From the NCBI GenBank assembly GCA_964585065.1, contig CAZPCB010000002.1, positions 166,967 through 230,966 of the forward strand: a stretch of 64,000 bases of DNA, written 5' to 3'. The position numbers were made by a program, and so were the translations under genes. The stretch is from an uncultured Candidatus Saccharibacteria bacterium (GTDB taxonomy: Bacteria; Patescibacteriota; Minisyncoccia; SW-4-49-11). The notes beneath the pieces are model-generated. The model saw nothing but the letters and a program-made list of their open reading frames with translations. It was not told the origin of the DNA and did not search any database. Numbering within the stretch: the first letter of the stretch is position 1; each line of letters starts with the position of its first letter. Shown here one piece after another: positions 10,354 through 53,049 of this stretch.

Positions 10354-10626
10354 TTAGATTACAGATACTGTTTTGATGATATGCTTTTTTCCAGTAAATG
10401 AAACTTTACGAGCTTTTCCAAATTCAATAACTCCATTTGCAATTGCATATAATGTGTCATCTGCTCCACGAGAAACATTTTTTCCAGCATGAAATTTAGT
10501 TCCACGTTGTCGAATAATGATATTCCCTTTTTCTACTTTTTGTCCAGCATATAGCTTAACTCCAAGATATTTTGGGTTTGAATCTCTACCTAAGGCTGTA
10601 GAACCACCAGCTTTTCTATGTGCCAT
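10354..10626 (-). CDS. rpmA: 50S ribosomal protein L27
   Basis: [24 protein letters not shown]...[13 protein letters not shown]. Start moved to the internal ATG at 10626. Confidence 0.9.
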
Positions 10627-10663
10627 ATCAAATAATGTTACTATATATGGTATAATAATACAT

Positions 10664-11047
10664 ATGAAATACCAATTTGTCAAGAATAGTGAAATTGTAC
10701 TGTTGATTATATCTGCAATATTGATAGGAGGGATTGCGTATTTTATTGGAAAAATTCAAACTTTAGAATCCCAACCAAATACAATACAAGTTGTGTATCC
10801 AGATGCTATTGCAATAAAAAAGGATACTATCAATACGTCTAATCAAGCCGCGGCCCACATCAATAGTACTATTGAGACAAAATTACAAACAGGTAAAATT
10901 ATAGCGAGTAAAAATGGAAAACGATATTATTATGAATCCTGTAGCGGTGTAAATCGTATTAAGCCAGAAAACAGAATATATTTTGATACGAAAGAACAAG
11001 CTGAAGCCAAGGGATTAACTATTGCTTCTGGATGTAAAGCCTTATGA
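10664..11047 (+). CDS. Small membrane-anchored protein with C-terminal Cys-pair module (YYYESCSG...IASGCKAL)
   Basis: Start at the internal ATG at 10664, immediately after a TATAAT box. N-terminal TM helix. Stop overlaps the next start (ATGA). Confidence 0.45.
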
Positions 11048-11853
11048 GAAAAACCTATATTCCCCGAACATATACCAAAAAGAAATCACCTGCTCGCAAA
11101 GCAAATCGATTCATAGAAATATTCCAATTTTTTATTTGGATTATATTTTTTGGGGGAATTGGATATGCCTTATATTCACCCATATTAAATATTGTGAATA
11201 TAGATATTCGAGTAGATAATGAAATATTACAAAAAAATATTAAATCAAAGTCTGAAGATTTAATACAAGCTCATAATCATTGGTATTATAATAATAAGAA
11301 TATTCTCCTTGCTCGTAGTGATATTCTTGAGAGAGAATTACAAAAAGAATTCCCACAAATTAAACATATTACTATTAAAAGGACAATAAATCGTTCATTG
11401 GAACTCACCATTCAACTTAGAAATCCCTTATTCACTATTTGTGAAAATACTATCTGCTCCAATATTAGTGATGATGGCGTCAATATTGGTAATGATTCTC
11501 TATCGGCTTCACTCATATCATTAACTGGGATTACTCCTAAGTCTCGTGGAGAAATTGTAGTTTCAGAGAGAGAAATAGCTTGGTTTAAAACTATTGTGGA
11601 AATGTATAATCAAATTGATGGCGTAAAAGTATCCTCAATTGCCATACAGCAAAAAGCAGAGAATAGAATATTGGGGGTATTCGTCTATACAGAACAAGGA
11701 TATTATATTATGCTAGATTTAGATACAGATATTATTTATCAAGCAGGGGCTTTAAAACAAGTCTTTATATCCCAGCTGCCTCCAGATCAAAGGCCTAATC
11801 TTCAATATATTGATTTACGGGTAAAGGATAGAGTATATTATAAGTTTAAATAA
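11044..11853 (+). CDS. FtsQ/DivIB-like cell division protein (POTRA-type)
   Basis: Basic N-terminus, single TM segment, then POTRA-like region (ILLARSDILERELQKEFPQIKHITIKR). Confidence 0.4.
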   Translation: MRKTYIPRTYTKKKSPARKANRFIEIFQFFIWIIFFGGIGYALYSPILNIVNIDIRVDNEILQKNIKSKSEDLIQAHNHWYYNNKNILLARSDILERELQKEFPQIKHITIKRTINRSLELTIQLRNPLFTICENTICSNISDDGVNIGNDSLSASLISLTGITPKSRGEIVVSEREIAWFKTIVEMYNQIDGVKVSSIAIQQKAENRILGVFVYTEQGYYIMLDLDTDIIYQAGALKQVFISQLPPDQRPNLQYIDLRVKDRVYYKFK

Positions 11854-11856
11854 TGT

Positions 11857-13650
11857 ATGAAACAGCATATTATCAAGTGGTATAATAAAATTCCCCTATG
11901 GGGATATGTTTTAGGTATTACGATAATACTTGCTGTGTTGGCATTTGGATCAAGTGCTGGAGATTCGTTAACAGTTGATGAAAGTCCTCATATTGGAGCT
12001 GGATATTCATATATTGCAAAGGGGGATTATCGACTGAATCCAGAACATCCACCTTTATTAAAAATGTTATCAGGGTCTTCTATTTGGCTTGGAGCAAAGC
12101 TCACGGGGAATACCGTTAATTTCCCAGATACTATTCCTGCTTGGACAGAAAAGGTTAATGCCCAATGGGATATTGGATATGCATTTCTCTTTCAATCAGG
12201 TAATGATGCTAATACTATTATATGGTGGGCTCGACTACCAACTATATTGATATTACTTTTAGGAGGGATTTATTTGACCTATTCGGTATATTATCATACT
12301 AAGAGTAAAGCTATTAGTGTTATTACCATTATATTATATGCATTTTCTCCTAATGTAATTGCTCACGGACGTCTTGTGACAACTGATATTATTGCAAGTA
12401 TGTCATTTATTATTGCTATTGATATTTGGGTGCGTTATCTCAAAAATCCTACCATTAAATATATTGGTTTACTTATTGTAGCTATATCATTTGCCTTTTT
12501 GTCTAAATTTTCTACTATTCTTTTATTGCCATTATTTTTTATGACCGGATTTGGGTATATTGCAGTAAAGTATTGGGGTAAAAAAAATATAATACGTAAA
12601 GGTGGTATTCTATTGCGAGATGCCCTTATTATAGCTATGGGAGTATTTGTAATTATCAATGGAGTATATTATTATACTATGCGAAATATGAGTGTTGATA
12701 CACAAATGAAATTAATTCAAGAATCATTCCCGCAAGATAATGCTATATCTCAAATTACAAAAAACAGTTTATCCCAGGTGGTTAATACTCCAGGGCTACA
12801 ATATTTTGGACAATATCTTTTAGGTCAGTCTATGGCAATACAAAGAGTAGGTGGGGGGAATACTACCTTTTTATTAGGGAGATTTACTAATCAGAGTTTT
12901 ACTGAGTATTTTCCAATCACCTATATATTAAAAGAACATTTAGGTATACTTGCGGTATTAGCAAGCTTACTACTAGTGAGTATAGTTCTTGGGATTCGAG
13001 CTATTCAGCATAAAAAGTTGAAATTCAATAGAAAATGGTTGCTCAAATACTGGTATGAATGGACGATAATCACTATGATACTCTTATATTGGTTTATTAG
13101 TATAAGAGGGAATTTGAATCTTGGAATACGACATATATTACCTGCCGTCATATTAACTTATATAATTATTGCTATTGGAATTGTACGTATATTATTACCT
13201 TTGAAATTTTCAAAAATAATTCTTGGTATATTTTTGATATGGTATATTGCTGCCACATTACTTGCATATCCTTCTTATCTCTCTCATTTAAATGTATTGG
13301 CAGGTCATGATCAAGGCTATCAAATCTTTACTGATTCTAATCTTGATTGGGGTCAGGACTTAAAACGATTGCATACATGGACGAAAGAGCAAAATATTGA
13401 TACACTATATATAGATTATTTTGGAACTGGAGATGTGAAATATTATCTTCCAGATATCAATATAATACCAGTAAAATCGAATGATGGACCTAAAATTGGC
13501 TATACTGCAATTAGTGCGACTATGTTTCAAGATTCATTTTATCTGAAACAAAAAAATCCAAATTATCAAGAATATTGGTGGTTAGCATGGAAAAAGCCAG
13601 ATTATATTATTGGGAATTCCATATTAATTTATTATAATAGCAGATATTAA
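11857..13650 (+). CDS. GT-C family glycosyltransferase (ArnT/PMT-like, GT39/GT83-type)
   Basis: Polytopic membrane protein. N-terminal loop DESPHIGAGYSY...NPEHPPLLK is typical of ArnT/PMT transferases. Confidence 0.65.
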   Translation: MKQHIIKWYNKIPLWGYVLGITIILAVLAFGSSAGDSLTVDESPHIGAGYSYIAKGDYRLNPEHPPLLKMLSGSSIWLGAKLTGNTVNFPDTIPAWTEKVNAQWDIGYAFLFQSGNDANTIIWWARLPTILILLLGGIYLTYSVYYHTKSKAISVITIILYAFSPNVIAHGRLVTTDIIASMSFIIAIDIWVRYLKNPTIKYIGLLIVAISFAFLSKFSTILLLPLFFMTGFGYIAVKYWGKKNIIRKGGILLRDALIIAMGVFVIINGVYYYTMRNMSVDTQMKLIQESFPQDNAISQITKNSLSQVVNTPGLQYFGQYLLGQSMAIQRVGGGNTTFLLGRFTNQSFTEYFPITYILKEHLGILAVLASLLLVSIVLGIRAIQHKKLKFNRKWLLKYWYEWTIITMILLYWFISIRGNLNLGIRHILPAVILTYIIIAIGIVRILLPLKFSKIILGIFLIWYIAATLLAYPSYLSHLNVLAGHDQGYQIFTDSNLDWGQDLKRLHTWTKEQNIDTLYIDYFGTGDVKYYLPDINIIPVKSNDGPKIGYTAISATMFQDSFYLKQKNPNYQEYWWLAWKKPDYIIGNSILIYYNSRY

Positions 13651-13654
13651 TTCC

Positions 13655-14116
13655 ATGGCAGAAATACAAAACAATTCAGAATCAATACCCCCACTAGAAC
13701 ACAATACTCCATCAGAACAAAGTATTGAGCGTAATTTCGAACAAATTACTCCTTTAGAGCAAAATAATCCAGTGGTGGAAAAGTATATAGAGAGCTCAGC
13801 ATATCAGGAGGCGCAAACTCATATCAAACAAGTAGTAGAAGAACAAAAAGTTGTACATCAACAAAATCCTATTGCAAAACCTTTATCTCCAAAATTACAA
13901 GAAAAATATGGATGGTTATTATCAATTCCAGAAGAGACAAGAACAGAAGTTTCTGTTAAATTGATTACCACAAAAGGTAAAGATATATTAGAGGTAATAC
14001 ATGCTTTTTTAGCTATTGAAGATTATGTAGGATTAGATAGATTGGAGGAATCTTTGAATGAAGTCTATCCAACTTTGATTCAAGAAGGTATACTAAGAGA
14101 TATACACGATAAATAA
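13655..14116 (+). CDS. Hypothetical protein
   Basis: 153-aa ORF directly upstream of the VirD4-like gene. No recognisable motif. Confidence 0.4.
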   Translation: MAEIQNNSESIPPLEHNTPSEQSIERNFEQITPLEQNNPVVEKYIESSAYQEAQTHIKQVVEEQKVVHQQNPIAKPLSPKLQEKYGWLLSIPEETRTEVSVKLITTKGKDILEVIHAFLAIEDYVGLDRLEESLNEVYPTLIQEGILRDIHDK

Positions 14117-14124
14117 ATATCAAT

Positions 14125-16548
14125 ATGATAATTGTACTCTATGTACTGCTAGTGCTATGGGTTATTGCTATAACATTTATTATAGCAACGGTTATTATAC
14201 ATCCATTTTGGGAAAAACGTCGTATTAATCGGGGACTTGCAATGACACAATATCAAATTATTGTACCTCGCAATATCCCTAATCCAGAAGCTAATATCAA
14301 AGATTTAATTAGTGTGATGGAACAGGTATATGCGGGGTTCTCTTATCTCAAATTAGAGAAATTAGTCAATCGTCTTAGATATGGGAGTCCTTATATTTCT
14401 CTTGAAATTGTAAGCCCTACCGAGCGAGATGAAATTAATTTTTATATTGGAGTTCCAAAAGGGTATGAATCTATTTTTGAAAAACAAATTCATGGAGTAT
14501 ATCCAGAAGCTGAGCTGAAGCATATTACCGATTATAATGTATTACTCCCTGAAGGAGAAATTCGGGCCGGATACTTACAGCTTAAAAAACCCTATATTCT
14601 CCCTATTAGAACCTATAAAGAATTAGAAACTAATCCTTTGAATGTGATTACCTCGGCTCTGTCTAAAATTCAGGAAGATGAAAGTGCAGTGGTACAGATT
14701 TTAATACAAAGAGTATCGGATGATTGGAGTAGTAGTGGTAAGAAGGTAGTGAAAAAAATGCAAAAAGGAGAAAGCTTCAAAAATGCATATAATGAAGTTT
14801 TTGGGGGGATTGATAAGCAATTTTTGAAAACTTTAGGTTCTGCTACAAAGTCTAAATCAACGGAAGTCTCTGAGCCAAAAATGTTAAGTCCTCAGGAGTC
14901 TATTATGATGGAGAAAATTAGTCAAAAAACAGGTAAAATTGCCTATGCGACTAATATTAGATTATTAACTATATCTCGAGATAGCCAAAGAGCAGATGTA
15001 TTATTTGATCAATTAGAGGGTGCTTTTTCTCAATTTGCCAATGGAGATCTGAATCAATTTAAAGTAATCAAATATCCTATAAAGAATATTAAACAATTTA
15101 TTTATACCTTTATATTCCGATTATTCTCAGTAAAAGAATCAATGTTATTAAATAGTGAGGAATTGACGAGTATATATCATATTCCTGCTGTGGGAGTGGA
15201 GACTCCAAAAGTAACTTGGATTACTTCTAAAACCTCACATCCTCCAGTTGATTTGCCAAAGGAAGGATTATTATTAGGGAAGAATATATATCGTGGTGAA
15301 GAAATTGAGGTAAGAATTGCAGAAGAGGATAGGAGACGTCATATGTATCTTATTGGACAAACAGGAACAGGTAAAAGTTCTTTGATGAAAAAAATGATAC
15401 AAGAAGATTTGCAAGCAGGACATGGTCTTGCTCTATTAGATCCTAATGGAGATTTTGCCGTGGAAGTATTGGGTATGATTCCAGAGCATCGTATGCAAGA
15501 TGTGATTTATTTTAATCCTGCTGATACTAATTATCCTATGGGACTTAATATTCTGGAAGCCCGCACACATGAGGAAAAAGATTTCTTGATACAAGAAATG
15601 ATTTCTATTTTTTATAAATTGGTATCTGATCCAAGTATGATAGGGCCAATATTTGAGCATAATATGCGAATGGCAATGTCAGCTTTAATGTCAGATGTCA
15701 ATAATCCAAGAACTCTGGTAGAAATACCTCTTATGTTTACTGATGAGGCATTTAGGAGACAAGTATTATTAACAGTTGACGATCCTGTCATACGGCATTT
15801 TTGGGAAAAAGAATTCCCTGCTACACAAAAAGGATCTCAAGCAGGAGATACACTTGGATATCTATTGAGTAAATTAGGGCGATTCATAGAAAATGAAATG
15901 GTACGTAATATTATTGGGCAATCTCGTTCAGCCTTTGATTTTCAAGATATTATGAATTCAGGTAAAATTTTGATTGGTAATCTTTCTAAAGGAGGGTTGG
16001 GAGAACAGAATAGCAATTTATTAGGTATGTTACTGGTATCCAAATTACAAATGGCAGCCTTTAAGCGAAATGAAATTCCAGAAGAACAGAGAAGAGATTT
16101 TTATTTGTATTTAGATGAGTTTCAAAACTTTACCACAGATAGTATATCTACCATTCTCTCTGAGGCTCGCAAATATCGATTATGTCTCATATTGGCCCAT
16201 CAATATATAGGACAATTATCTGAGGGGATAAAGAATGCAGTATTTGGGAATGTGGGTACTGTGGTGAGTTTCCGTATTGGCTCCGAGGATGCTGAAATTA
16301 TTGCTCAGCGTATGCAACCATATTATAGTGCTGAGGATTTAGTGTCAATTGACAATCTAAAGTCAGTAATAACCTTGATGATACAGGGTAAGACCAGTAA
16401 AGCTTTTAATATGGATATTATATTCGCTGATAAGACGAATGCATCTTTACAACAACGGGTAATATTAGAGTCTCGCAATAAATATGCCAAGCCGGCAGCT
16501 GAAATACGAGCGGATATATCGAGTCGTACGCAAAGTATGTTCGAATAG
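14125..16548 (+). CDS. Type IV secretion/conjugation coupling protein-like ATPase (VirD4/TrwB/TraG family)
   Basis: N-terminal TM helix. Walker A HMYLIGQTGTGKSS followed by LLDPNGDF, matching the TrwB GATGTGKS...IVDPNGD arrangement. Walker B-like YLYLDEFQNF. Confidence 0.6.
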   Translation: MIIVLYVLLVLWVIAITFIIATVIIHPFWEKRRINRGLAMTQYQIIVPRNIPNPEANIKDLISVMEQVYAGFSYLKLEKLVNRLRYGSPYISLEIVSPTERDEINFYIGVPKGYESIFEKQIHGVYPEAELKHITDYNVLLPEGEIRAGYLQLKKPYILPIRTYKELETNPLNVITSALSKIQEDESAVVQILIQRVSDDWSSSGKKVVKKMQKGESFKNAYNEVFGGIDKQFLKTLGSATKSKSTEVSEPKMLSPQESIMMEKISQKTGKIAYATNIRLLTISRDSQRADVLFDQLEGAFSQFANGDLNQFKVIKYPIKNIKQFIYTFIFRLFSVKESMLLNSEELTSIYHIPAVGVETPKVTWITSKTSHPPVDLPKEGLLLGKNIYRGEEIEVRIAEEDRRRHMYLIGQTGTGKSSLMKKMIQEDLQAGHGLALLDPNGDFAVEVLGMIPEHRMQDVIYFNPADTNYPMGLNILEARTHEEKDFLIQEMISIFYKLVSDPSMIGPIFEHNMRMAMSALMSDVNNPRTLVEIPLMFTDEAFRRQVLLTVDDPVIRHFWEKEFPATQKGSQAGDTLGYLLSKLGRFIENEMVRNIIGQSRSAFDFQDIMNSGKILIGNLSKGGLGEQNSNLLGMLLVSKLQMAAFKRNEIPEEQRRDFYLYLDEFQNFTTDSISTILSEARKYRLCLILAHQYIGQLSEGIKNAVFGNVGTVVSFRIGSEDAEIIAQRMQPYYSAEDLVSIDNLKSVITLMIQGKTSKAFNMDIIFADKTNASLQQRVILESRNKYAKPAAEIRADISSRTQSMFE

Positions 16549-19206: not shown

Positions 19207-19653
19207 TTATTTACGGAAGACAAAAAATTTATAACCAACAAAGCTCACAATCATTGATCCCCCTGTTCCTAATAGTTTACCAATAATTGCCGGATCTATC
19301 AATTGAGAGGGGATAAAAGATAAGGATAGTGGGAGGAGAATAGTTGCTGGCAATATGAATATGGTTAGCCTTAATATAGTGGTATTAACAATAAATCCTA
19401 AGGCATTCACAATGAGAAAACTCCCAAATTCTCGAGGCTTAGTTTTTTTCTTATGTTGAAAGGTAATATATTTATTGGCAAAATAACTAAATATAATAGC
19501 AGTAATTATGGAGATGAGATTAATATAGATAATAGAATGTGATTCATTAGAAATATTAAAGCTATATTTCAATAAAGCAAATACCCCGATATCAATCGAG
19601 GTATTTAGAACTCCAATAATAGCAAAGAGTATTATTTCACGTGTTTTTACCAA
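19207..19653 (-). CDS. GtrA-family membrane protein (polysaccharide synthesis/translocation-associated)
   Basis: Four-TM small protein of GtrA type. Apparent TTG start; no in-frame ATG near the N-terminus. Confidence 0.6.
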   Translation of the reverse strand: MVKTREIILFAIIGVLNTSIDIGVFALLKYSFNISNESHSIIYINLISIITAIIFSYFANKYITFQHKKKTKPREFGSFLIVNALGFIVNTTILRLTIFILPATILLPLSLSFIPSQLIDPAIIGKLLGTGGSMIVSFVGYKFFVFRK

Positions 19654-20445: not shown

Positions 20446-20528
20446 GCTGGTGTGGTGGAATGGTAGACACGAAGGACTCAAAATCCTTTGGAGGTAACTC
20501 CGTAACGGTTCAAGTCCGTTCACCAGCA
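20446..20528 (+). tRNA. tRNA-Leu (anticodon CAA), type II with long variable arm
   Basis: Acceptor GCTGGTG/CACCAGC. Anticodon stem AAGGA/TCCTT with loop CTCAAAA. Variable stem GGAG/CTCC. T-arm AACGG-TTCAAGT-CCGTT. No encoded CCA. Confidence 0.85.
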
Positions 20529-20534
20529 CAAGTA

Positions 20535-20568
20535 TAAAAAACCTCCCAATTCTTTGGGAGGTTTTTTA
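20535..20568. terminator. Bidirectional intrinsic terminator (AAAAAACCUCCCAA-uucu-UUGGGAGGUUUUUU)
   Basis: Perfect 9-bp GC-rich stem flanked by A-run and T-run. Sits between tRNA-Leu (+) and the 3' end of the minus-strand pilin gene. Confidence 0.6.
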
Positions 20569-20598
20569 TACTTGTTGTATTGCTATTGTGCTGGGATT

Positions 20599-22482
20599 TT
20601 AATCTAGGGTACCAATATAATTATATCGAGCTATATACATATCTCTATTACTAGTAGGTGTGAGTGAGATTTGATTAGTACCGCCAATACCAAATGTTGC
20701 AAAACTATTAAAGTCTCCCGCTATTACAAAACCTCCCAGTACCTTCCCAATTGCTATTCCTCTATCTGAACCCATTCCTCCAGCTCTTCGAGCCCAAGCA
20801 AGAGTCCCATCAGTATTATATTTAGCTATAAATACATCATCACTACCACTACTGGTCAGAATAGTCTGATTTGTTTCTCCCGGTCCAAAAGTAGCTGTTC
20901 CATTAAATTGCCCTGTTATAATACTACTTCCATCTATATTCCTCATTATATCAAAACTGCTATCATCATTTAGGCCCCCAGCTTTTTTAGCCCAGATTAA
21001 ACTACCATTATCACTATATTTAGCTATAAATATATCTGAACCACCACTGCTACTTAAGATGGTTTGATTTGTCTCTCCTGGTCCAAAAGTAGCTGTTCCT
21101 TGAAGGTTTCCTATTATAAGACTATCAGTATTAGGTAATGTTCTAACTGCTATGGGGCCATCCCAACCAATTCCACCAACCTTTCGAGCCCAAGCTAAGG
21201 TTCCATTAGTATTATATTTGGCTATAAATCCATCTATATCAGTAGTATTCGTCAATATAGTTTGATTTGCTTCTCCTTGTCCAAGAGTAATATTTCCATA
21301 AAAAGCTCCAATTATGATAGAGCTACCATCATTTAACATACTAACTCCTGTACTATCATCTATATCTGTACCACCAGCTTTTCGAGCCCAAGCAAGAGTC
21401 CCATCAGTATTATATTTAGCTATAAAAGCATCTCTATTCCCAGCATTAGCTACTAGAATAGTCTGATTTGTTTCTCCCGGTCCAAAAGTAGCTGTTCCCT
21501 GAAAGTATCCTACACTAATACTAGTCCCATCAGATAAAGTACTAATACCATAGCCACGTCCATAATCTCCTACTACACTACCAGTAACTCCTTTAGCCCA
21601 AGCAAGAGTCCCATTGGCATTATATTTAGCTATAAATGTGTTATTTGAGATAATACTATTTAATGTTGTTTGATTTGTTTCCCCTTGTCCAAACACTGCA
21701 GTCCCACTAATATAACCCGTTGTAATACTGCTCCCATCAGGAAGACAGCTAATACCATAGCTTATATCATAGTCATTTCCTCCATCCCGCCTAACCCAAG
21801 CCAAACTACCATCGATATTATATTTGGCTACAAATATATCATATCCACTCCCAACAGATGTACGTATGGTCTGATTTGTTTCTCCTGGGGCGAAGGTTGC
21901 ATTTCCTTGAAATAATCCTGTCACTATACTGCTCCCATCAGAATTAGTACACATTCCCCCTGTATTAATAATTTCTCCAGGACTTCCCCCAGCCCGCTTT
22001 GCAAAGTTAACTGGTGTTGCTGGAAGGGTAAAAGTTGTACTTTGAGATTCAGAAGTGAAAGTGGTATTATCAACACTATTAATTCCTCCCACTCCAATTT
22101 TACCATTTGTACTTTTTACTATATAAAAACCACTATTATTGATATCGGTGGAATATGAAGGGATGCTCGCAATATAATTGGGTACTAATACAGATAAATT
22201 TACCTTACCCGTACAAGAGGGTGCTCCTGTTTTACAAATTTCTAGAGAACTACCAGCAGGAACATTCTGGACATCAGTAGGATAAGCTCCAGTTTTGAGT
22301 GCATATTGTTCTATAGCTTGATAGAGAGTAAGGGCATCAGCTTTACGCTTATTGTCATTGACTTCAGTAATAATTCTACTTGGATTAAGAGTATATAATA
22401 CTGTAGCAAAGAGAACAGCAAGTAGAGCAATAACAAGAAGTATTTCGAGTAGGGTAAAACCTTTTTTTGTATAGGGTTTCAT
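20599..22482 (-). CDS. Type IV pilin-like protein with C-terminal SBBP-type beta-propeller repeats (putative pilus adhesin)
   Basis: Prepilin N-terminus MKPYTKKGFTLLEILLVIALLAV (class III signal, GFTLLE). About 8 tandem repeats of the form G..D.S.GIS.L.DGSSI..G.F.GTATFGPGETNQTIL....DAFIAKYN.DGTLAWARK.GG. Confidence 0.7.
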   Translation of the reverse strand: MKPYTKKGFTLLEILLVIALLAVLFATVLYTLNPSRIITEVNDNKRKADALTLYQAIEQYALKTGAYPTDVQNVPAGSSLEICKTGAPSCTGKVNLSVLVPNYIASIPSYSTDINNSGFYIVKSTNGKIGVGGINSVDNTTFTSESQSTTFTLPATPVNFAKRAGGSPGEIINTGGMCTNSDGSSIVTGLFQGNATFAPGETNQTIRTSVGSGYDIFVAKYNIDGSLAWVRRDGGNDYDISYGISCLPDGSSITTGYISGTAVFGQGETNQTTLNSIISNNTFIAKYNANGTLAWAKGVTGSVVGDYGRGYGISTLSDGTSISVGYFQGTATFGPGETNQTILVANAGNRDAFIAKYNTDGTLAWARKAGGTDIDDSTGVSMLNDGSSIIIGAFYGNITLGQGEANQTILTNTTDIDGFIAKYNTNGTLAWARKVGGIGWDGPIAVRTLPNTDSLIIGNLQGTATFGPGETNQTILSSSGGSDIFIAKYSDNGSLIWAKKAGGLNDDSSFDIMRNIDGSSIITGQFNGTATFGPGETNQTILTSSGSDDVFIAKYNTDGTLAWARRAGGMGSDRGIAIGKVLGGFVIAGDFNSFATFGIGGTNQISLTPTSNRDMYIARYNYIGTLD

Positions 22483-22587
22483 AATATATATTTTATTTCT
22501 AGATTAAGTTTAGTATAGCATAAAACTGTTATTGAGTGTATAGGGACTTTATGCTATACTTATACACATAAATCATTAAAATAATAT

Positions 22588-25873: not shown

Positions 25874-26449
25874 ATGATAGCAAAGCCTGACTTTGAACAT
25901 GTCGTATTAGTAACTGAGCTCGATGAAGTAATTGGAGTAGCACCAAAATCTGAGGTGCATACTCTCACAACCCCTCTTCATCGAGCTTTTTCTTTATTCC
26001 TATTCCGACCTGGGGACAGGCAATTCCTTATTCAGCAAAGATGGCGGTGTAAGAAAACCTGGCCCCTTGTATGGTCTAATAGTTGTTGTGGACATCCGGA
26101 ACTTGGTGAGGCTACTATTGATGCGGTCAGGAGACGAGCAAAATTTGAATTGGGAGTTGAGAATTTTGATATATTAGAAGAGGTGAGCCCTTATCGTTAT
26201 ACCTTTGAGCGAGATGGAGTCGTAGAAAATGAAATATGTCCTATTTATTTTGGTATTAGTTCAGACCCAATTCACCCTCATCCCGAGGAGGTGGAAGCTT
26301 ATCGTTGGCTTAGCTGGGATCAATTTGTGAGTGAGGCTTTTGCTGATGATAAGACATTCTCCGAATGGTGCCGAGAAGAATTGAGATTATTAGAGCAAAC
26401 ACAATTATTCAAGGATTTTATGAAAATTAATATAATTGTCATACTTTGA
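25874..26449 (+). CDS. idi: Isopentenyl-diphosphate delta-isomerase, type 1 (Nudix fold)
   Basis: LHRAFSLFLF...WSNSCCGHP...ENEICP match the E. coli Idi catalytic Cys and Glu regions. Confidence 0.8.
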   Translation: MIAKPDFEHVVLVTELDEVIGVAPKSEVHTLTTPLHRAFSLFLFRPGDRQFLIQQRWRCKKTWPLVWSNSCCGHPELGEATIDAVRRRAKFELGVENFDILEEVSPYRYTFERDGVVENEICPIYFGISSDPIHPHPEEVEAYRWLSWDQFVSEAFADDKTFSEWCREELRLLEQTQLFKDFMKINIIVIL

Positions 26450-26510
26450 CAAAATACTAATACAAGCTATACTATAAGTACATGCTGTTCGGCATGCCTG
26501 TCCCATTATC

Positions 26511-26819
26511 ATGGTGATTGACATGGCTCAGACTCAGTTTGGATTCTTAACTCGAGAAAGAGAAGAGGAAATTGTGGAGAGAGGAATATTAGCTTTACAA
26601 CCACAATTCCATACTTTTTTCCTTCGCCGAGAGCCTCGAGTTCGTGATTGGGAAGAATCACTTTGGATATTAAGGAAACAAATGTGTCATACCTTTATCC
26701 AAAATGGTATGAAAGCAAAGCAAGCAGAGAAACATACAGATCATATTCTTGAATCTATATTGACACAACTTGTGCTGAAGGAATTTGCTCATATCATCAA
26801 TCCCAATGAAAACATATAA
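26511..26819 (+). CDS. Hypothetical protein
   Basis: 102-aa ORF with ATG start. No recognisable motifs. Confidence 0.35.
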   Translation: MVIDMAQTQFGFLTREREEEIVERGILALQPQFHTFFLRREPRVRDWEESLWILRKQMCHTFIQNGMKAKQAEKHTDHILESILTQLVLKEFAHIINPNENI

Positions 26820-26925
26820 AGCTCTGTATATCCCGCCTTCTCTTATGTTGGTGGGAATTTTTTCTTTTGACCATATAAACATATTATGGTATATATAATA
26901 TGTCTTGTATTGGGTCTATTCCCTT

Positions 26926-27225
26926 ATGTCACATCTGAATCGCCGTCAAACAATTATTGTTGGATTTGGGGGATTAACTCTAGGACTTGTAGGGGGATTA
27001 GTTTTTCAAAGCCTCTTAGTAACTACTACTCCAAAGATGAAATTACCTGATGATTTATCTCAGACATATCAGGTGCTTGCCAGGAGAACCTTTATTCTAG
27101 CACCTGGACAATGTGAACTCGGATCCTTGGATTATCCAGTTAAAACTCCTATCAATACCTCTCAATCTATCATTCTAGTATGTGGTAAGGGTATAGATGG
27201 GAGAGTAGTTACCAATTTCCCTTAA
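26926..27225 (+). CDS. Hypothetical small secreted/membrane protein
   Basis: The ORF track begins at a TTG (26905). The first in-frame ATG is at 26926. Hydrophobic N-terminal segment. Confidence 0.3.
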   Translation: MSHLNRRQTIIVGFGGLTLGLVGGLVFQSLLVTTTPKMKLPDDLSQTYQVLARRTFILAPGQCELGSLDYPVKTPINTSQSIILVCGKGIDGRVVTNFP

Positions 27226-27267
27226 TATCTCAATTCTATGAGCCACCCCAAGGGATGGCTTTTTCTT

Positions 27268-28218
27268 TTATACTTTATTATCTTCTTCTAATTTATGAAT
27301 ATAGCTATAAGCTGATAAGGCGGCTTTGACAGCGTCTCCAGCGGAGATATTATTTTGCTTATAAGCTTCATCGGTTATATCTCCGGCGGCGAATATTCCT
27401 GCTTGTGAAGTAGTGCCATATTTATGATCTAGTATGATTTCTCCAATTTGATTGGTATTAACTAGATGCTTGACTATATCTGAATTCGGAAGAGATCCAA
27501 TTTCAATAAATAACCCTGTAATAGCAAGCTCACTGTTCTCTTGTGTTTTGAGATTCTGATAATGAACTCCTGTCATTAATTTTTCTCCGAATATATCAGT
27601 GACTACCGTATTATAAAGTATACCTTTGAAATTAGGGTGTTTTTGAATTTTCTCAGCAGTTTGAGGGTCTCCCTTTAGTTCATCACTACGATTAAAGAGA
27701 TAGACTTCACTGGCATAGGATAGTAAATCTAATACACTTTCGAGACCCGCATTTCCTCCTCCCACGACAGCTACTTTTTGTCCTTCAAAAAACGGAGCAT
27801 CACAAGTAGCACAATAAGCTACACCTTTTGCGGAGAATTCTGCCTCTCCAGGAATATCTAATTTGCGACGATGTGCTCCCATACCAAGAATTAAGGTTTT
27901 AGTTTGAAAGGTTTTACCTCCTTCAGTCACAATTTCATATACAGGGTAGGGGCTTTCACTAATTTGATTAATACTGATAACTTTATCTATTAAAGTCTCA
28001 AGTCCTGATTGGGCTTTGATATGCGCCTCAAACTTTTGGGCTAAATCAAATCCAGAAATTCTAATATCTCCAATCCAATTATCAATATCATTAGATACTA
28101 CTGATTGCCCTCCAAAACCATCGGTAATAAGTATGGCTTTTAATTGTTTGCGGGCGGCATATATAGAGGCGGCAGTTCCTGTAGGCCCTCCTCCAATAAT
28201 AATAGTGTCATAAATCAT
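27268..28218 (-). CDS. trxB: Thioredoxin-disulfide reductase
   Basis: FAD motif IIGGGPTGTAA, redox-active CATCD, NADPH motif VVGGGNAG. Confidence 0.9.
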   Translation of the reverse strand: MIYDTIIIGGGPTGTAASIYAARKQLKAILITDGFGGQSVVSNDIDNWIGDIRISGFDLAQKFEAHIKAQSGLETLIDKVISINQISESPYPVYEIVTEGGKTFQTKTLILGMGAHRRKLDIPGEAEFSAKGVAYCATCDAPFFEGQKVAVVGGGNAGLESVLDLLSYASEVYLFNRSDELKGDPQTAEKIQKHPNFKGILYNTVVTDIFGEKLMTGVHYQNLKTQENSELAITGLFIEIGSLPNSDIVKHLVNTNQIGEIILDHKYGTTSQAGIFAAGDITDEAYKQNNISAGDAVKAALSAYSYIHKLEEDNKV

Positions 28219-28301
28219 ATTTGCTTGAGTTTAATGAGAATGTATTTTGATAATATAGGAATATTTGATATACTTATATCATAATAGAATAATAATATAA
28301 T

Positions 28302-29045
28302 ATGGGAAATAAATCAATTTTATTAGTAGTAGCTTCCATTTTACTTTCAGGTATGATGATTGCAACAGCAATAATATTCAATGGATATCAGAGTAGAAGT
28401 AATAATAATACGGCTACGAATGATTTACCACAAGTTGATAATAATGACCCAGTAGAGGCGCGCGATATTAATGTTGATATTTCTGATGATACTCCATATC
28501 TTGGAAAAAAATCAGAGGCCAAAATTGCAATTATAGAGTTTAGCGATTATGAATGTCCTTTTTGTAAAAAATTCCATGAAGGAGCAAGACCTGATATAAT
28601 TGACAAATATGTAAATACTGGAAAAGCAATATTAGCTTGGAAAGATTATCCATTAGAATTCCATGATCCTCTTGCAACCAAGCAAGCGATAGCAGCTCAA
28701 TGTGCATATGAACAAAAAGGAAATGAGGGATATTTTGCATATGCTGATTTGATATTCAATAAAACTGAAAGTGGTGGAGATGGAATGAAAGAAGAAGAAT
28801 TAAATATATTAGCTAAAGGGATAGAGGGGCTTGATACTGCGAAATTTGATACTTGTCTGAAAGAAGAAAAAACTCTCAATAAAGTAAAAGCAGGTACAAA
28901 ATTTGGTAATGATAATGGAATTACGGGAACTCCTGGATTTATTATTGGAAAATTAGAAAATGGTAAATTAGTTGGGGGTATTCGAATTGCAGGGGCTTTA
29001 CCACTCGCAACATTCCAAGGATATCTTGATGACCTTTTGAAATAA
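28302..29045 (+). CDS. Membrane-anchored DsbA-family thiol:disulfide oxidoreductase (second copy)
   Basis: TM anchor and CxxC motif FSDYECPFCKKFH. Confidence 0.65.
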   Translation: MGNKSILLVVASILLSGMMIATAIIFNGYQSRSNNNTATNDLPQVDNNDPVEARDINVDISDDTPYLGKKSEAKIAIIEFSDYECPFCKKFHEGARPDIIDKYVNTGKAILAWKDYPLEFHDPLATKQAIAAQCAYEQKGNEGYFAYADLIFNKTESGGDGMKEEELNILAKGIEGLDTAKFDTCLKEEKTLNKVKAGTKFGNDNGITGTPGFIIGKLENGKLVGGIRIAGALPLATFQGYLDDLLK

Positions 29046-34955: not shown

Positions 34956-36206
34956 ATGCAAAAAAAAGGGTTTACATTATTAGAGGTATTACTGGTTATC
35001 GCTTTAATAGGGATATTATTGACTATTATATTGGTAGTCCTCAATCCAAGGGAGCGTTTTGCTGTAGCTCGTAATGATGTTAGGAAATCTGATATACAAA
35101 AATTAGAAGGAGCTCTTACCCAATATCGCTTACAAGAGGGATCCTATCCTGCGGGACTTACTTCAACCTTACAAGAAATTTGTGACCCAGATATTAGTAA
35201 TCCTTCCGTAAATTGTGGTAGCTATATTAACTTATCATCTCTTGTCCCAACTTATATTCAATCCATACCACAAGATCCCCAAGACACTGATTCAACAGGA
35301 GGTTCTGGATATCAAGTTGCGGTAGATGTGACACGAAATGTAGTAGCACTAAAAGCAATACAGGCAGAATCCTCAGCTACAATATCTATTAATGACCCCT
35401 TATCATCGGCTCTACCAAGTACAGCGGTAAATACACCACTTGCAGCAAGTAACCCTTCCATAACTAGTCAAACTCCACCTTTAGTACCTAATACAGGAGA
35501 TGTATCGCTACTGCTCCATGCGGATGGTAGTTTTGCGGACAGTAGTCCTAATAATTTTGTTCCAATGAGTACTGGAGGGACTCCCGGAGTGAGTGGCGAG
35601 GGGGTGCAAATTAGTACTACTCAGAGCAAGTTTGGTGGTTCAAGCCTATTCTTCCCAGATGTGGACATAAATAATGCCCCCTATCCTGCGTTGTCATATT
35701 GGACACCTGAGTCTGGTGGATATAATTATTTCCCTGAGTTTAGCCTAGGAAATACTTATACAATTGAAGCATGGGTCTACGCAATTACACCCAGGGGAGG
35801 AATAGTTGAGAGGCTTGCTGGAGCTTTTTCACAGGAATATGGGTACTCTATGACGTTTGAAGGAGCACGAATAAAATGTTACTTTTACGGAACCTTCGAC
35901 GGTTCAGGATTTCAACAGTATATCTTAGCTCCTTCTGCATTTCCCACCTCAACCTGGGTTCATGTAGCGATGGTTCGTAGTGGAACAAACGGAGCCTTAT
36001 ACATTAACGGTGAGTCAGTTGGTACTATAAATAATCTTAACACTCCGCAAGGAAGTGTTAAGCCGGTTCGTATAGGTTCAAAAAGTGTTGGAAGCGGAGG
36101 AAATTATAACACTATCTTCTTCAACGGTTACATAGATGATCTACGTATCACTAAAGGAGTTGCCATATACACCTCTAACTTCACCCCACCTACTTCAGCT
36201 TTTTGA
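34956..36206 (+). CDS. Type IV pilin-like protein with C-terminal LamG/concanavalin A-like lectin domain
   Basis: Prepilin N-terminus MQKKGFTLLEVLLVIALIG. C-terminal 160 aa has the LamG_3 pattern (TWVHVAMVRSG..ALYINGESVG...FNGYIDDLRITKG). Confidence 0.65.
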   Translation: MQKKGFTLLEVLLVIALIGILLTIILVVLNPRERFAVARNDVRKSDIQKLEGALTQYRLQEGSYPAGLTSTLQEICDPDISNPSVNCGSYINLSSLVPTYIQSIPQDPQDTDSTGGSGYQVAVDVTRNVVALKAIQAESSATISINDPLSSALPSTAVNTPLAASNPSITSQTPPLVPNTGDVSLLLHADGSFADSSPNNFVPMSTGGTPGVSGEGVQISTTQSKFGGSSLFFPDVDINNAPYPALSYWTPESGGYNYFPEFSLGNTYTIEAWVYAITPRGGIVERLAGAFSQEYGYSMTFEGARIKCYFYGTFDGSGFQQYILAPSAFPTSTWVHVAMVRSGTNGALYINGESVGTINNLNTPQGSVKPVRIGSKSVGSGGNYNTIFFNGYIDDLRITKGVAIYTSNFTPPTSAF

Positions 36207-36269: not shown

Positions 36270-36455
36270 TTGATCAGAGGTGATGGGTCTCGAGGTAATA
36301 CCTTTAATATCGGGGCAGGATTTACGAGTACTGCTCAGAGTATTATACAACAAAATGATGGGAACTTCGTTATAGGTGGCTATTTTGCTACTTATCAAGG
36401 AGTAGCAGAAGCTTATATAGCTCGTCTTAATACAGATGGAAGTAGTGCTCAGTAA
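36270..36455 (+). pseudogene. Remnant of a beta-propeller repeat (IARLNTDGS-type) with no proper start
   Basis: The ORF opens with TTG and has no ATG. The translation GYFATYQGVAEAYIARLNTDGS resembles one blade of the repeat in the pilin at 20599-22482 (FIAKYNTDGT). Confidence 0.35.
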
Positions 36456-38539: not shown

Positions 38540-39805
38540 ATGCAAAATAAAAAAGAAAAAGGCTTTACATTATTGGAGATATTACTAGTAATAGCAGTAA
38601 TAGGAATATTAGCAGCTATAGTATTAATTGCTATTAATCCTAATAAACAAATAGCGCAAGCTCGTAATACTGCTAGGAAAGTTGATATTAATACATTAGA
38701 AAAAGCCTTAAGACAATATTCTATAGATAATGCAGGTCAGCTCCCAAATGTAATACTGAATCAATATAAAGTAATTTGTAGACAAGGTATTACTGATCCT
38801 TCTTGTATTAATCTTGATGTTTTGGTACCCACATATATTGCGGCTATTCCTCGGGATACACAATCAAATACTATTAATACAGGATATTCGGTAGCAGTAA
38901 ATCCCAATAATACGAATGTTTCTATTGTTGCAAATTTAGCTGAACAGTTTGTAGAAATTTCAATTAATAAATTTAATGAAGGAAGTGGTGCTTCGGCTTT
39001 ATTAGCAGCTAATTCTTGTCAATCTATTTTGTCTTCTGGATACTCAACTGGAAATGGAGTATATTGGATTAATTTACCTACTTCAGGTGCTACACAGATA
39101 TATTGTCTTATGGATACATTATTTGATGGTGGTGGCTGGATGTTGGCTATGAAAGCTACTCGCGGCACTACATTTAATTACGACTCTGCTCATTGGACTA
39201 CAACAACAACATTAAATCCCACCGATCTAACGAGAAACGATGCGGATGCTAAGTATCATACTATGAACTATTACCCCACCAGGGATTTAATGGCCGTGTG
39301 GCCAGATATCCCAACAGCTGGAGGAAGTATTCCTAATACTGGAAGCTGGACTTGGTTGGAAAAGAATTTTTACAATGGTGGTAATCGAACTACTCCTATA
39401 AATTTCTTTAGCACAATGGGAACATATAATAATGGCGGAACACCTAGTACGGGTGATTATGGCGGCTATTTTATTAAAGACGCTAAGACATTTAGTGGCT
39501 GGGCAAATGGTGTGTTTTCGAGCCAGGTAGATATTAGATTTTATGGATTCAACTTTATCAATCATCCTAATTACGGATTTAATGGTAGAGTCCGTTGGGG
39601 ATTTGGATGGAATGAGAATGGTGAGGGACTATATACTAGTCCTGCTACACTAGCCACCGGCTGGGCACCTGGGTCGGATGACGTAAGTGGTGGTATAGGT
39701 ATGGCAAGTCAATTTGGTAGTTATTCAGCTGGAGATATAATTAACTGCTGTCAAGATAATACAGGTATAAACCGATCCGCTAGAGTTGAATTATATATTA
39801 GATAA
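38540..39805 (+). CDS. Type IV pilin-like protein with C-terminal fibrinogen-related domain (FReD)
   Basis: Prepilin N-terminus MQNKKEKGFTLLEILLVIAVIG. The segment NSCQSILSSGYSTGNGVYWINLPTSGATQIYCLMDTLFDGGGWMLAMKATRGTTFNY matches the FReD core pattern C..G.SGvY.I.P...VyCDM.tdGGGWT..Q.R.dG..F. Confidence 0.7.
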   Translation: MQNKKEKGFTLLEILLVIAVIGILAAIVLIAINPNKQIAQARNTARKVDINTLEKALRQYSIDNAGQLPNVILNQYKVICRQGITDPSCINLDVLVPTYIAAIPRDTQSNTINTGYSVAVNPNNTNVSIVANLAEQFVEISINKFNEGSGASALLAANSCQSILSSGYSTGNGVYWINLPTSGATQIYCLMDTLFDGGGWMLAMKATRGTTFNYDSAHWTTTTTLNPTDLTRNDADAKYHTMNYYPTRDLMAVWPDIPTAGGSIPNTGSWTWLEKNFYNGGNRTTPINFFSTMGTYNNGGTPSTGDYGGYFIKDAKTFSGWANGVFSSQVDIRFYGFNFINHPNYGFNGRVRWGFGWNENGEGLYTSPATLATGWAPGSDDVSGGIGMASQFGSYSAGDIINCCQDNTGINRSARVELYIR

Positions 39806-51950: not shown

Positions 51951-52328
51951 ATGAATATTTTGAGTATTGACTATGGTGATGTTCGCATTGGGCTCGCGCA
52001 GGGTTCTACAGATCATAATATTGCTCTTCCACTGAAAGTAATACAAAATACTGATAAAGTTTGGGATGAATTACAAGAAATTATCACTCAATATGAAATT
52101 AATCATATTTTAGTTGGATTACCATTAAATTTTAAATCTGAGGATACTCAACAAACTACTAAGGTAAGAAATTTTATTACTGAATTAGATAAGCAATTTA
52201 ATGGGACTATTGAAGAATTTGACGAGAGATTAACGAGTGCTTTGGCAAAACGATATATTCCCAGAGGGCAAAGTATTGATGTGGAGTCAGCCCGTATTTT
52301 ATTAGAAGAATGGTTTGAAAAACAATAA
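51951..52328 (+). CDS. ruvX: Putative pre-16S rRNA nuclease / Holliday junction resolvase-like YqgF
   Basis: ILSIDYGDVRIGLA RNase H-like N-terminus. 125 aa. Confidence 0.8.
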   Translation: MNILSIDYGDVRIGLAQGSTDHNIALPLKVIQNTDKVWDELQEIITQYEINHILVGLPLNFKSEDTQQTTKVRNFITELDKQFNGTIEEFDERLTSALAKRYIPRGQSIDVESARILLEEWFEKQ

Positions 52329-52329
52329 T

Positions 52330-53049
52330 ATGAAAATAAGTGTTATAATACCTGCCTATAATGAAGCTAAGAGAATTACTCCGACTATCCGTGATATTGT
52401 CGAATATTTAGATCAAGTATCTCCAAAAGATTATGAAATTCTCATTGTATTAGATGGCTCCAAGGATAATACTCTTAATATAGTGACAGAACTCGCTCAA
52501 GAATATAAAGCCATTCGCATTATTCATAATGTCGTTAATCGTGGAAAAGGTGCCGTTGTAAGACAAGGTATATTAGAGTCAATAGGAGAATATGTATTAT
52601 TTATGGATGCTGATAATTCAACTCGTATACAGGAATTAGATGCTATGTTGCCGGTATTAAAGCAGGGGACTGAGATTGTTATTGGTTCTAGGGATATGAA
52701 GGAGAGCAAGGTAGAAATTCATCAAGCTTGGTATAAAGAATTATTGGGAGATCTTGGCAATTGGTGGATACAGATATTATTGGTTGGAGGGATACAAGAT
52801 ACACAATGTGGATTTAAAGCTTTTTCTGGTATTGCTGCTCGACGTATATTTGAAAAAGTGAGTATGCGGGGCTGGTCATTTGATATTGAAGTATTAGCTT
52901 TGGCTCGATACTTTGGATACTCTATCAAAGAAATGCCAGTTATATGGTATAATGATGACAGCTCACATGTAACATTAAAAGATTATATTGCGGTACTCCG
53001 AGATACTTTTATTATCAAATATAGAATCTGGACGGGATATTATCAATAA
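52330..53049 (+). CDS. Glycosyltransferase family 2 (dolichyl/polyprenyl-phosphate sugar transferase-like)
   Basis: ISVIIPAYNE...ILIVLDGSKDNT...FMDADNS (DxD) motifs. Confidence 0.75.
   Translation: MKISVIIPAYNEAKRITPTIRDIVEYLDQVSPKDYEILIVLDGSKDNTLNIVTELAQEYKAIRIIHNVVNRGKGAVVRQGILESIGEYVLFMDADNSTRIQELDAMLPVLKQGTEIVIGSRDMKESKVEIHQAWYKELLGDLGNWWIQILLVGGIQDTQCGFKAFSGIAARRIFEKVSMRGWSFDIEVLALARYFGYSIKEMPVIWYNDDSSHVTLKDYIAVLRDTFIIKYRIWTGYYQ

Follow-up and report, generated by a model that had tools for sequence, protein, structure and literature searches.

A two-module type IV pilin carrying a predicted seven-bladed beta-propeller, encoded at a variable locus of an uncultured Patescibacteria genome

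Described modular pilins and the propeller pilin

Modular type IV pilins were defined from Streptococcus sanguinis PilB (pilin plus vWA) and PilC (pilin plus ConA-like lectin) (Raynaud et al. 2021, PMC8179133), and in the accompanying survey 1219 proteins in 264 architectures were collected, peptidase modules among them (PMC8179133). In Patescibacteria, a functional analogue has been studied with PilX2 of Nanosynbacter lyticus TM7x (Saccharibacteria), a heptabladed-propeller pilin put forward as adhesin of the thin T4P-2 pilus (T4P, type IV pilus), the deletion of which reduced host binding from 10.6% to 4.6% (PMC11623550). The present analysis concerns a window of 64,000 nucleotides (the whole stretch of DNA analysed; contig CAZPCB010000002.1, positions 166,967 to 230,966, GenBank assembly GCA_964585065.1) and, within it, the gene at 20599..22482 on the minus strand. 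This complete open reading frame (ORF) of 627 codons plus stop encodes, according to the ORF list and the Pfam matches to N_methyl and DUF5122, a bimodular type IV pilin made of a pilin module and a seven-bladed beta-propeller, hereafter called the propeller pilin.

Like the modular pilins of Raynaud et al., whose second module is predicted to be tip-exposed and ligand-binding (PMC8179133), the propeller pilin joins an N-terminal IPR012902 module by a short linker to a bulky, independently folding module, and it falls under their definition, with an N_methyl part and a DUF5122 propeller on the two sides of a linker modelled at low confidence (residues 136-155). Unlike PilB and PilC, it has a complete seven-bladed propeller as effector instead of a vWA domain or a lectin, originates from a Candidate Phyla Radiation (CPR) bacterium, is encoded outside any pilus locus and is known from sequence and a model alone. 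Compared by description, PilX2 has a propeller of RCC1 repeats, lacks a predicted PilD signal and is encoded inside a T4P locus, whereas the propeller pilin, encoded by a stand-alone gene, has DUF5122/SBBP-like repeats of 66 aa and a canonical class III signal. The Leptospira LipL53-family SBBP lipoproteins are likewise surface propellers of the same repeat group, but are lipid-anchored and not pilin-anchored; binding of laminin, fibronectin and collagen IV has been described for genes homologous to lipL53, which are annotated as beta-propeller lipoproteins with SBBP repeats (PMC13066512). A further likeness exists to the PilY1/PilC tip adhesins of diderm type IVa pili, in which a beta-propeller is presented at the pilus tip for adhesion.

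IPR013431 is taken here to be the InterPro entry for the delta-60 repeat, and IPR002181 presumably denotes the fibrinogen C-terminal domain. Dataset S1 of the survey contains the architectures IPR012902-IPR013431-IPR013431 (4 proteins), IPR012902-IPR013431 (1 protein), IPR012902-PF13385 (229 proteins) and IPR012902-IPR002181 (8 proteins) (PMC8179133), and these three kinds of architecture are the three kinds present in the window. A pilin-propeller fusion in Patescibacteria is of a known kind, with the architecture class catalogued and a functional analogue studied. What differs here is the divergent DUF5122/SBBP-like propeller with a 66-aa period and a CylK-like fold, together with the canonical signal and the stand-alone gene.

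By analogy with PilB/PilC (PMC8179133) and PilX2 (PMC11623550), a minor or tip pilin with a binding function would be the most reasonable reading of the protein. In full, and with a probability of roughly 0.62, we consider the propeller pilin to be a low-abundance, most likely tip-located bimodular type IV pilin, which carries a propeller adhesin for attachment to a host or surface and represents one allele of a recombining locus.

Pilin module, linker and propeller

A sequence-only reading of the window had placed a 627-aa protein at 20599-22482, and an uninterrupted ORF was found exactly there, on the minus strand, which that reading had left out; a public collection held one identical protein entry (P0001). 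The prepilin N-terminus proposed at the same time was confirmed, as MKPYTKKGFTLLEILLVIALLAV is present and scores above the curated cutoffs both of Pfam N_methyl (24.4 bits, cutoff 21.2) and of TIGR02532 IV_pilin_GFxxxE (24.5 bits, cutoff 16.3). The N-terminus, MKPYTKKG followed by FTLLEILLVIALLAVLFATVLYTL, shows all hallmarks of a class III signal and has no lipobox: the leader peptide (aa 1-8, 22459..22482, minus strand) is basic, ends in Gly and precedes F(+1)TLLE(+5), and a hydrophobic stretch of ~22 residues comes after E+5. The G-1/F+1/E+5 arrangement expected of such a signal occurs as G8(-1)/F9(+1)/E13(+5); in the alignment these three residues are invariant in 10/10 members of the propeller-pilin family, and the leader is conserved in the 9 full-length homologues described below. 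From this signal and the profile matches we infer cleavage by prepilin peptidase after G8.

The structure was predicted with AlphaFold2 from a 48-sequence alignment, and the model of the whole protein reached a mean predicted local distance difference test score (pLDDT) of 89.7 and a predicted template modelling score (pTM) of 0.82. In this model the mature pilin module (aa 9-135, 22078..22458, minus strand; pLDDT 75-90) is predicted to have a pilin fold, in which a long alpha1 helix with a hydrophobic N-terminal part (alpha1-N) lies on a small three-stranded beta-sheet head with a Cys83/Cys90 pair. Alpha1 spans residues 11-64 with a kink at N33-P34 (helices 11-31 and 34-64), the strands of the head lie at 78-82, 119-123 and 129-133, and the head ends near residue 135. 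The module weakly resembles, below threshold and up to about residue 75, the GspG, GspH and ComG pilins as well as GspG/geopilin structures (sequence-search E 0.0066 for GspG structure 5wda).

The pilin module is followed by a Ser/Thr/Asn-rich linker (aa 136-158, NSVDNTTFTSESQSTTFTLPATP; 22009..22077, minus strand), of which residues 136-155 were modelled without secondary structure at pLDDT <50, and by the seven-bladed beta-propeller (aa 159-627, 20602..22008, minus strand), which was modelled as an all-beta domain from 160 to 627 with pLDDT mostly above 90. The repeat pattern noted earlier, DGSSI..G.F.GTATFGPGETNQTIL...D.FIAKYN.DGTLAWARK.GG, is present. The earlier estimate of about 8 repeats of about 55 aa had to be replaced, since repeat detection gave 7 with a period of 65-70 aa (170-235, 236-301, 302-371, 372-437, 438-503, 504-569, 570-627; anchors at 217, 283, 353, 419, 485, 551 and 616) and a pairwise identity of 32-64%. 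At the DNA level, the search for tandem repeats in the gene yielded just a trivial 12-bp array, so that the blades repeat at the protein level only. The final strand LAWARKAGG is missing from repeat 7, and the same motif is found as residues 160-168 (VNFAKRAGG) ahead of repeat 1, which corresponds to the 'velcro' closure expected of a propeller and supports a closed ring of seven blades with strand exchange between the termini. The proposal of a pilin carrying a whole beta-propeller is thus borne out in each of its parts, namely the class III signal, the pilin-fold head, the flexible linker and the closed propeller.

The SBBP-type label of the sequence-only reading survived in part. The repeats do belong to the DUF5122/delta-60/SBBP group of propellers, but the suggested search with Pfam SBBP (PF06739) returned no match, neither for the whole protein at E<=1 nor for the seven single repeats and one shifted repeat at E<=10, and this label was rejected and replaced by DUF5122/delta-60. 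The sister Pfam family DUF5122 (PF17164) was passed narrowly (29.5 bits, cutoff 27), whereas the match to NCBIfam delta_60_rpt (TIGR02608) was partial and sub-threshold (2.6e-13, 49.6 bits, cutoff 76.5); canonical DUF5122 proteins, such as the pilin on contig L013 introduced below, score 317 bits and have a period of ~52 aa. The propeller was therefore regarded as a divergent DUF5122 relative with a 66-aa period. The NCBIfam model for the SBBP LipL53 family (NF047494) matched residues 196-526 partially (1e-18) and with 67.3 bits against a cutoff of 400, hence the propeller pilin is not a member of that family. Among 1552 propeller homologues (E<=1e-5), some carry precomputed PF17164 annotations, some PF06739 and some both.

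Nine full-length homologues (610-633 aa, 40-46% identity, 99-100% coverage, N_methyl plus DUF5122) were found on contigs of the Paceibacteria/Parcubacteria type. They agree with the propeller pilin in leader, pilin head, linker, number of repeats (seven) and the C-terminal end ...YN..G.L[DE]. A crude identity-based neighbor-joining tree built from 48 propeller domains places the ten that are linked to a pilin together in one group, which is consistent with their descent from a single fusion event. Most other propeller homologues come from other phyla and combine the same propeller with PKD, type IX secretion system (T9SS) sorting or other domains. The metagenome-assembled genome (MAG) GCA_023264145.1 (Paceibacterota; contigs L086 and L004) encodes at least three pilin-propeller paralogues of 637, 619 and 608 aa, two of which are separated by a photolyase gene alone.

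Every blade contains an E-x-N-x-T motif, in the form G-E-[TA]-N-Q-T or, in blade 7, G-G-T-N-Q-I, which the whole family retains as E.N.T. The motif matches the PglB-type sequon for N-glycosylation in bacteria, but a structural role is more likely.

The closest solved structure to the propeller is the C-terminal beta-propeller of CylK (PDB 7RON, 7FH6-8) at 20-24% sequence identity. In CylK, the active site is formed between the propeller and an N-terminal Ca-binding domain. As the matches cover CylK residues ~278-648 only, roughly its C-terminal half, and the N-terminal region of CylK is without counterpart, its place being taken here by the pilin module, assignment to the CylK-type alkylating enzymes was rejected.

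Variable cassette between serS and tRNA-Leu

Three MAG contigs from GTDB, L013 (JBIIRM010000003.1), L039 and L012, are collinear with the window around the propeller-pilin gene. Between L013 and the window, blastn matches extend over 32461-22281 and 20546-12664, and homology is lost only between 22280 and 20547. Together with the junction alignments and the divergence profile, this delimits a variable cassette at 20547..22280 (minus strand), from codon ~68 to 52 nt beyond the stop. In 500-bp bins, L013 and the window are 99-100% identical away from the gene, 83-87% identical over 1.2 kb on the upstream side, which is the 5' half of serS, and 93-95% identical over 2 kb on the downstream side, while the other two pilin loci of the window are 95-100% identical to L013.

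The L013 allele encodes a 797-aa pilin, the first 65 residues of which are 86% identical to the propeller pilin; beyond residue 65 the head is another one (43% identity), and an FGE-sulfatase-like domain and seven DUF5122 repeats of the canonical type (317 bits) follow. The L039 allele combines a head of the L013 type (87% identity) with an FGE-like domain, and the L012 allele has a head of the window type (61% identity). By flanking DNA, the window groups with L013 (91.8%) and L039 with L012 (91.6%), with 83-86% identity across the groups. By head-coding DNA, the window groups with L012 against L013 with L039, without detectable nucleotide similarity across the groups. As the two groupings cross, allele type is incongruent with genome relatedness, and this incongruence, together with the local peak of divergence, argues for exchange by homologous recombination or for a long-maintained polymorphism.

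Of the two cassette junctions, the first was placed within the conserved 5' end that codes for alpha1, and the second at the terminator and tRNA-Leu. The hairpin terminator (20529..20574; CCTCCCAA...TTGGGAGG, flanked by an A-run and a T-run) was detected by a terminator scan as a 20-pair stem, reported on the plus strand, and by sequence reading; it separates the pilin stop from the tRNA gene and forms the 3' edge of the cassette. The symmetry of A-run and T-run suggests that it might act in both directions. The tRNA-Leu(CAA) gene (20446..20529, plus strand; ARAGORN on the window, L013 and L039) is convergent with the propeller-pilin gene and serves as the conserved anchor 3' of the cassette. 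No tRNA gene was found beside members of the propeller-pilin family elsewhere, and the tRNA boundary is therefore specific to the window locus. On the opposite side, the divergent intergenic region of 105 bp between serS and the propeller-pilin gene (22483..22587) is almost invariant in an alignment of the four genomes. An extended -10-like element (TGCTATACT, 22520-22512, minus strand) was read by eye upstream of the gene; since a consensus scan of this strand reported no full -35/-10 pair, the promoter is a by-eye call only. No Shine-Dalgarno-like sequence is visible in 22483-22587.

In L013, the stop of the 797-aa pilin is directly followed by another terminator-like hairpin and by 20 nt that repeat the tRNA-Leu 3' end (GTGCTGGTGAACGGACTTGA; L013:12395-12627), and about 200 nt of unique DNA lie between this duplicate and the real terminator and tRNA-Leu. 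The partial duplicate is consistent with a recombination scar. In L039, a stop codon follows right after the FGE-like domain, and the DNA beyond it keeps the start (GFTGFN) and the last delta-60 repeat (L039:7240-7700), which indicates a probable loss of the propeller through a nonsense mutation combined with an internal deletion. None of the fetched loci exceeded 64-71% nucleotide identity to the cassette, hence no recent donor was sampled. A metagenome scan with a conserved intergenic 31-mer gave 0 matches, and the protein-based scan gave no further alleles of the locus.

Read at the sequence level, these patterns indicate that the effector end of the propeller pilin is probably a recombining, polymorphic cassette, as expected of a host-recognition molecule, and replacement of modules between strains fits diversifying or frequency-dependent selection, for example on a host-recognition adhesin or a phage receptor. 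Analogous pilA allele groups are found in Pseudomonas aeruginosa between pilB and tRNA-Thr, with a conserved alpha1-coding 5' end, a variable 3' part and a tRNA boundary. Unlike these alleles, which differ in head variants and accessory genes, the window locus swaps whole effector domains of different folds. A more far-reaching proposal, held tentatively and at somewhat less than even odds, is that the serS-tRNA-Leu locus is a hot-swappable host-recognition cassette, in which the pilin handle (promoter, leader and alpha1) would be kept, the head and whole effector domains of unrelated folds would be swapped across lineages by homologous recombination, and the alleles would be held as a trans-lineage polymorphism by frequency-dependent selection through host range or phage pressure.

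A second patch of low identity (75-90%) to the otherwise 99%-identical L013 was observed at 26000-28500, where small ORFs (26511-27225) and a 316-aa ORF (27268-28218) are located; it bears no relation to the pilin gene.

Other pilins of the window and competing explanations

By motif scan and module alignment, the window contains three pilin genes that share one kind of pilin module, with G-1, F+1, E+5, N33-P34, C83, C90 and LVPxYI..IP among the invariant positions. The second of them (34956..36206, plus strand) encodes 416 aa with a pilin module and a Laminin_G_3/ConA-like lectin domain (Pfam N_methyl, T2SSG, and Laminin_G_3 at 3e-20). It is followed at 36281..36445 (plus strand) by the non-coding relic of a single delta-60 propeller repeat (with SIIQQNDGNFVIGGYFATYQGVAEAYIARLNTDGSSAQ and a stop at its end), recognised by translation and by blastn similarity of 70-74% to the propeller repeats of the L013 pilin. 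The relic begins ~75 nt after the stop of the lectin pilin and ends ...ARLNTDGSSAQ*, like the C-terminus of the L013 pilin, which suggests that an ancestral lectin-plus-propeller pilin may have lost its propeller. The third pilin (38540..39805, plus strand; 421 aa) was recognised by motif scan, Pfam and PDB sequence search and has a C-terminal domain with weak similarity to fibrinogen-related domains: residues 158-213 matched ficolin-3 (E 0.0047) and tenascin (E 0.22-0.31), the domain contains YCLMDTLFDGGGWMLAMK, and Pfam matches are limited to N_methyl. This protein is 100% conserved in a near-identical MAG. In relatives, the pilin modules carry PA14/GLEYA, FGE-sulfatase-like or canonical DUF5122 modules. 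Two such pilins of 863 and 953 aa (L019:9920-12511 and L071:9977-12838) contain 13 canonical DUF5122 repeats each (about 580 bits), which by repeat count would be enough for two propellers per pilin.

In the tip-adhesin reading given at the outset, prepilin peptidase would remove the leader after G8 and methylate F9, and the hydrophobic alpha1-N would retain the protein in the membrane until the pilus machinery inserts it into a type IV filament, which would proceed through its pilin module and with E+5-dependent packing. As a ~50-kDa module cannot sit on every subunit, it would be a low-abundance, most likely tip subunit that shows the propeller outward; this adhesin module would bind the ligand through which the cell attaches to a host cell or a surface. 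Everything from codon ~66 to the terminator and tRNA-Leu would be exchanged between lineages by homologous recombination, with the leader and alpha1 end conserved, so that near-identical strains would display different effectors on the same carrier (the propeller in one, the FGE-sulfatase-like domain with another propeller in the other).

Several results weigh against this picture. Among ~40 window ORFs scanned by Pfam, no pilus assembly gene (PilB/PilC/PilD/PilM/PilT) was found, FtsA giving a sub-threshold PilM_2 match only, and the motif scan found no small major pilin in the window. No assembly genes were present within 10 kb of four homologues, and a further 20 kb of the near-identical MAG (L016) contained one more lectin pilin and no machinery. 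As machinery was not found in the scanned ORFs, filament incorporation is therefore something that we infer for this organism. Relatives with more than 50% identity to the propeller pilin were absent from the collections scanned (best hit of the metagenome protein scan <=48%), and the invariant residues of the family are mainly structural-looking (G, F, W, Y, D) and indicate no ligand. The genomes compared for the cassette are all MAGs, and the L012 contig ends at codon 157, inside the gene. Finally, CylK is a Friedel-Crafts alkylating enzyme without a pilin module and not an adhesin, and its function is not transferable.

The missing neighbourhood of pilus genes speaks for surface display without a filament, in which signal and head would only anchor and export the protein and the propeller would act as a receptor, comparable to the class III substrate-binding proteins of the archaeal 'bindosome': no machinery or major pilin lay near any family member examined, and the genes stand singly among housekeeping genes. 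E+5 matters for the assembly of T4P filaments, and its invariance in 10/10 family members, together with the complete and conserved pilin head, makes this explanation unlikely. It is also opposed by the nearly universal presence of T4P genes across Saccharibacteria and by the scattered pilin loci of TM7x, where pilins are likewise encoded apart (PMC11623550).

That the propeller is instead catalytic, a pilus-borne alkylating (CylK-like) or glycan-degrading enzyme acting on host surface polymers, gains some support from the enzymatic nature of its closest solved structure, from the peptidase modules in the modular-pilin survey (PMC8179133) and from the FGE-sulfatase-like domain of the allelic partners in L013 and L039. 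With the CylK match limited to ~278-648 at 20-24% identity and the N-terminal region without counterpart, this reading was judged improbable.

Still less probable is a major or body subunit, in which propellers would sheathe the whole filament and the 20-residue linker would splay the modules. No small major pilin was seen in the window, the flexible linker makes incorporation into the body sterically conceivable, and Raynaud et al. leave body incorporation possible (PMC8179133). However, the genome encodes at least 3-4 different large modular pilins, each of which is unlikely to be a major subunit, large modular pilins are minor in the studied systems (PMC8179133, PMC11623550), and relatives do encode pilins of 145-177 aa.

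A decaying, non-functional gene, an orphan pilin-fusion remnant of module shuffling, could be suspected from the stop codon and deletion in L039 and the repeat relic after the lectin pilin, but is the least probable of all given the intact frame of 627 codons, seven well-formed blades in a confident model, the conserved upstream region, the clean terminator and the full-length homologues kept in several genomes, some as multiple paralogues. A modular pilin accounts better than any of these rivals for the intact head of the pilin, the invariance of E+5 and the full-length paralogues that are maintained.

The window as a whole is AT-rich (GC about 0.32-0.38) and contains housekeeping genes including tRNA synthetases, dnaX, gyrB, ftsA and parAB; DNA syntenic or homologous to it comes from MAGs of Paceibacteria/Parcubacteria (CPR/Patescibacteria). 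Glycosyltransferase genes were observed at 19207-19653 (minus strand, GtrA-like), 11857-13650 (plus strand, PMT_2 family) and 52315-53049 (plus strand, glycosyltransferase family 2, GT2), and from the Ser/Thr-rich linker and these neighbours, O-glycosylation of the pilin is a possibility. At 14125-16548 (plus strand), an 807-aa TrwB/VirD4-like coupling protein of type IV secretion systems (T4SS) is encoded (TrwB_AAD_bind, TraG-D_C), with three ORFs without Pfam match and the PMT_2-family glycosyltransferase upstream (10517-14116); the Patescibacteria T4SS has been described as related to monoderm conjugation systems (PMC12102498). Directly after ftsA, a 674-aa ORF (61028-63052, plus strand) has no Pfam match, and an identical protein occurs on one Logan contig.

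A life attached to other microbes is assumed for CPR/Patescibacteria, and their host recognition is poorly understood; so far, type IV pili with their accessory pilins are the foremost candidates (PMC11623550). Taken alone, a propeller on a modular pilin will not surprise specialists; the present gene adds a well-modelled pilin-propeller fusion from the little-studied Paceibacteria. More useful is the result that, at one locus, strains of ~99% identity share the pilin carrier but differ in the effector module on it. Provided that the module determines host binding, variants in host range could be followed through this locus in metagenomic time series, and the locus would be a natural start for the expression of candidate adhesins. 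Should the reading as a swappable cassette be true, the locus would provide a tractable marker for host specificity at the strain level among uncultured episymbionts.

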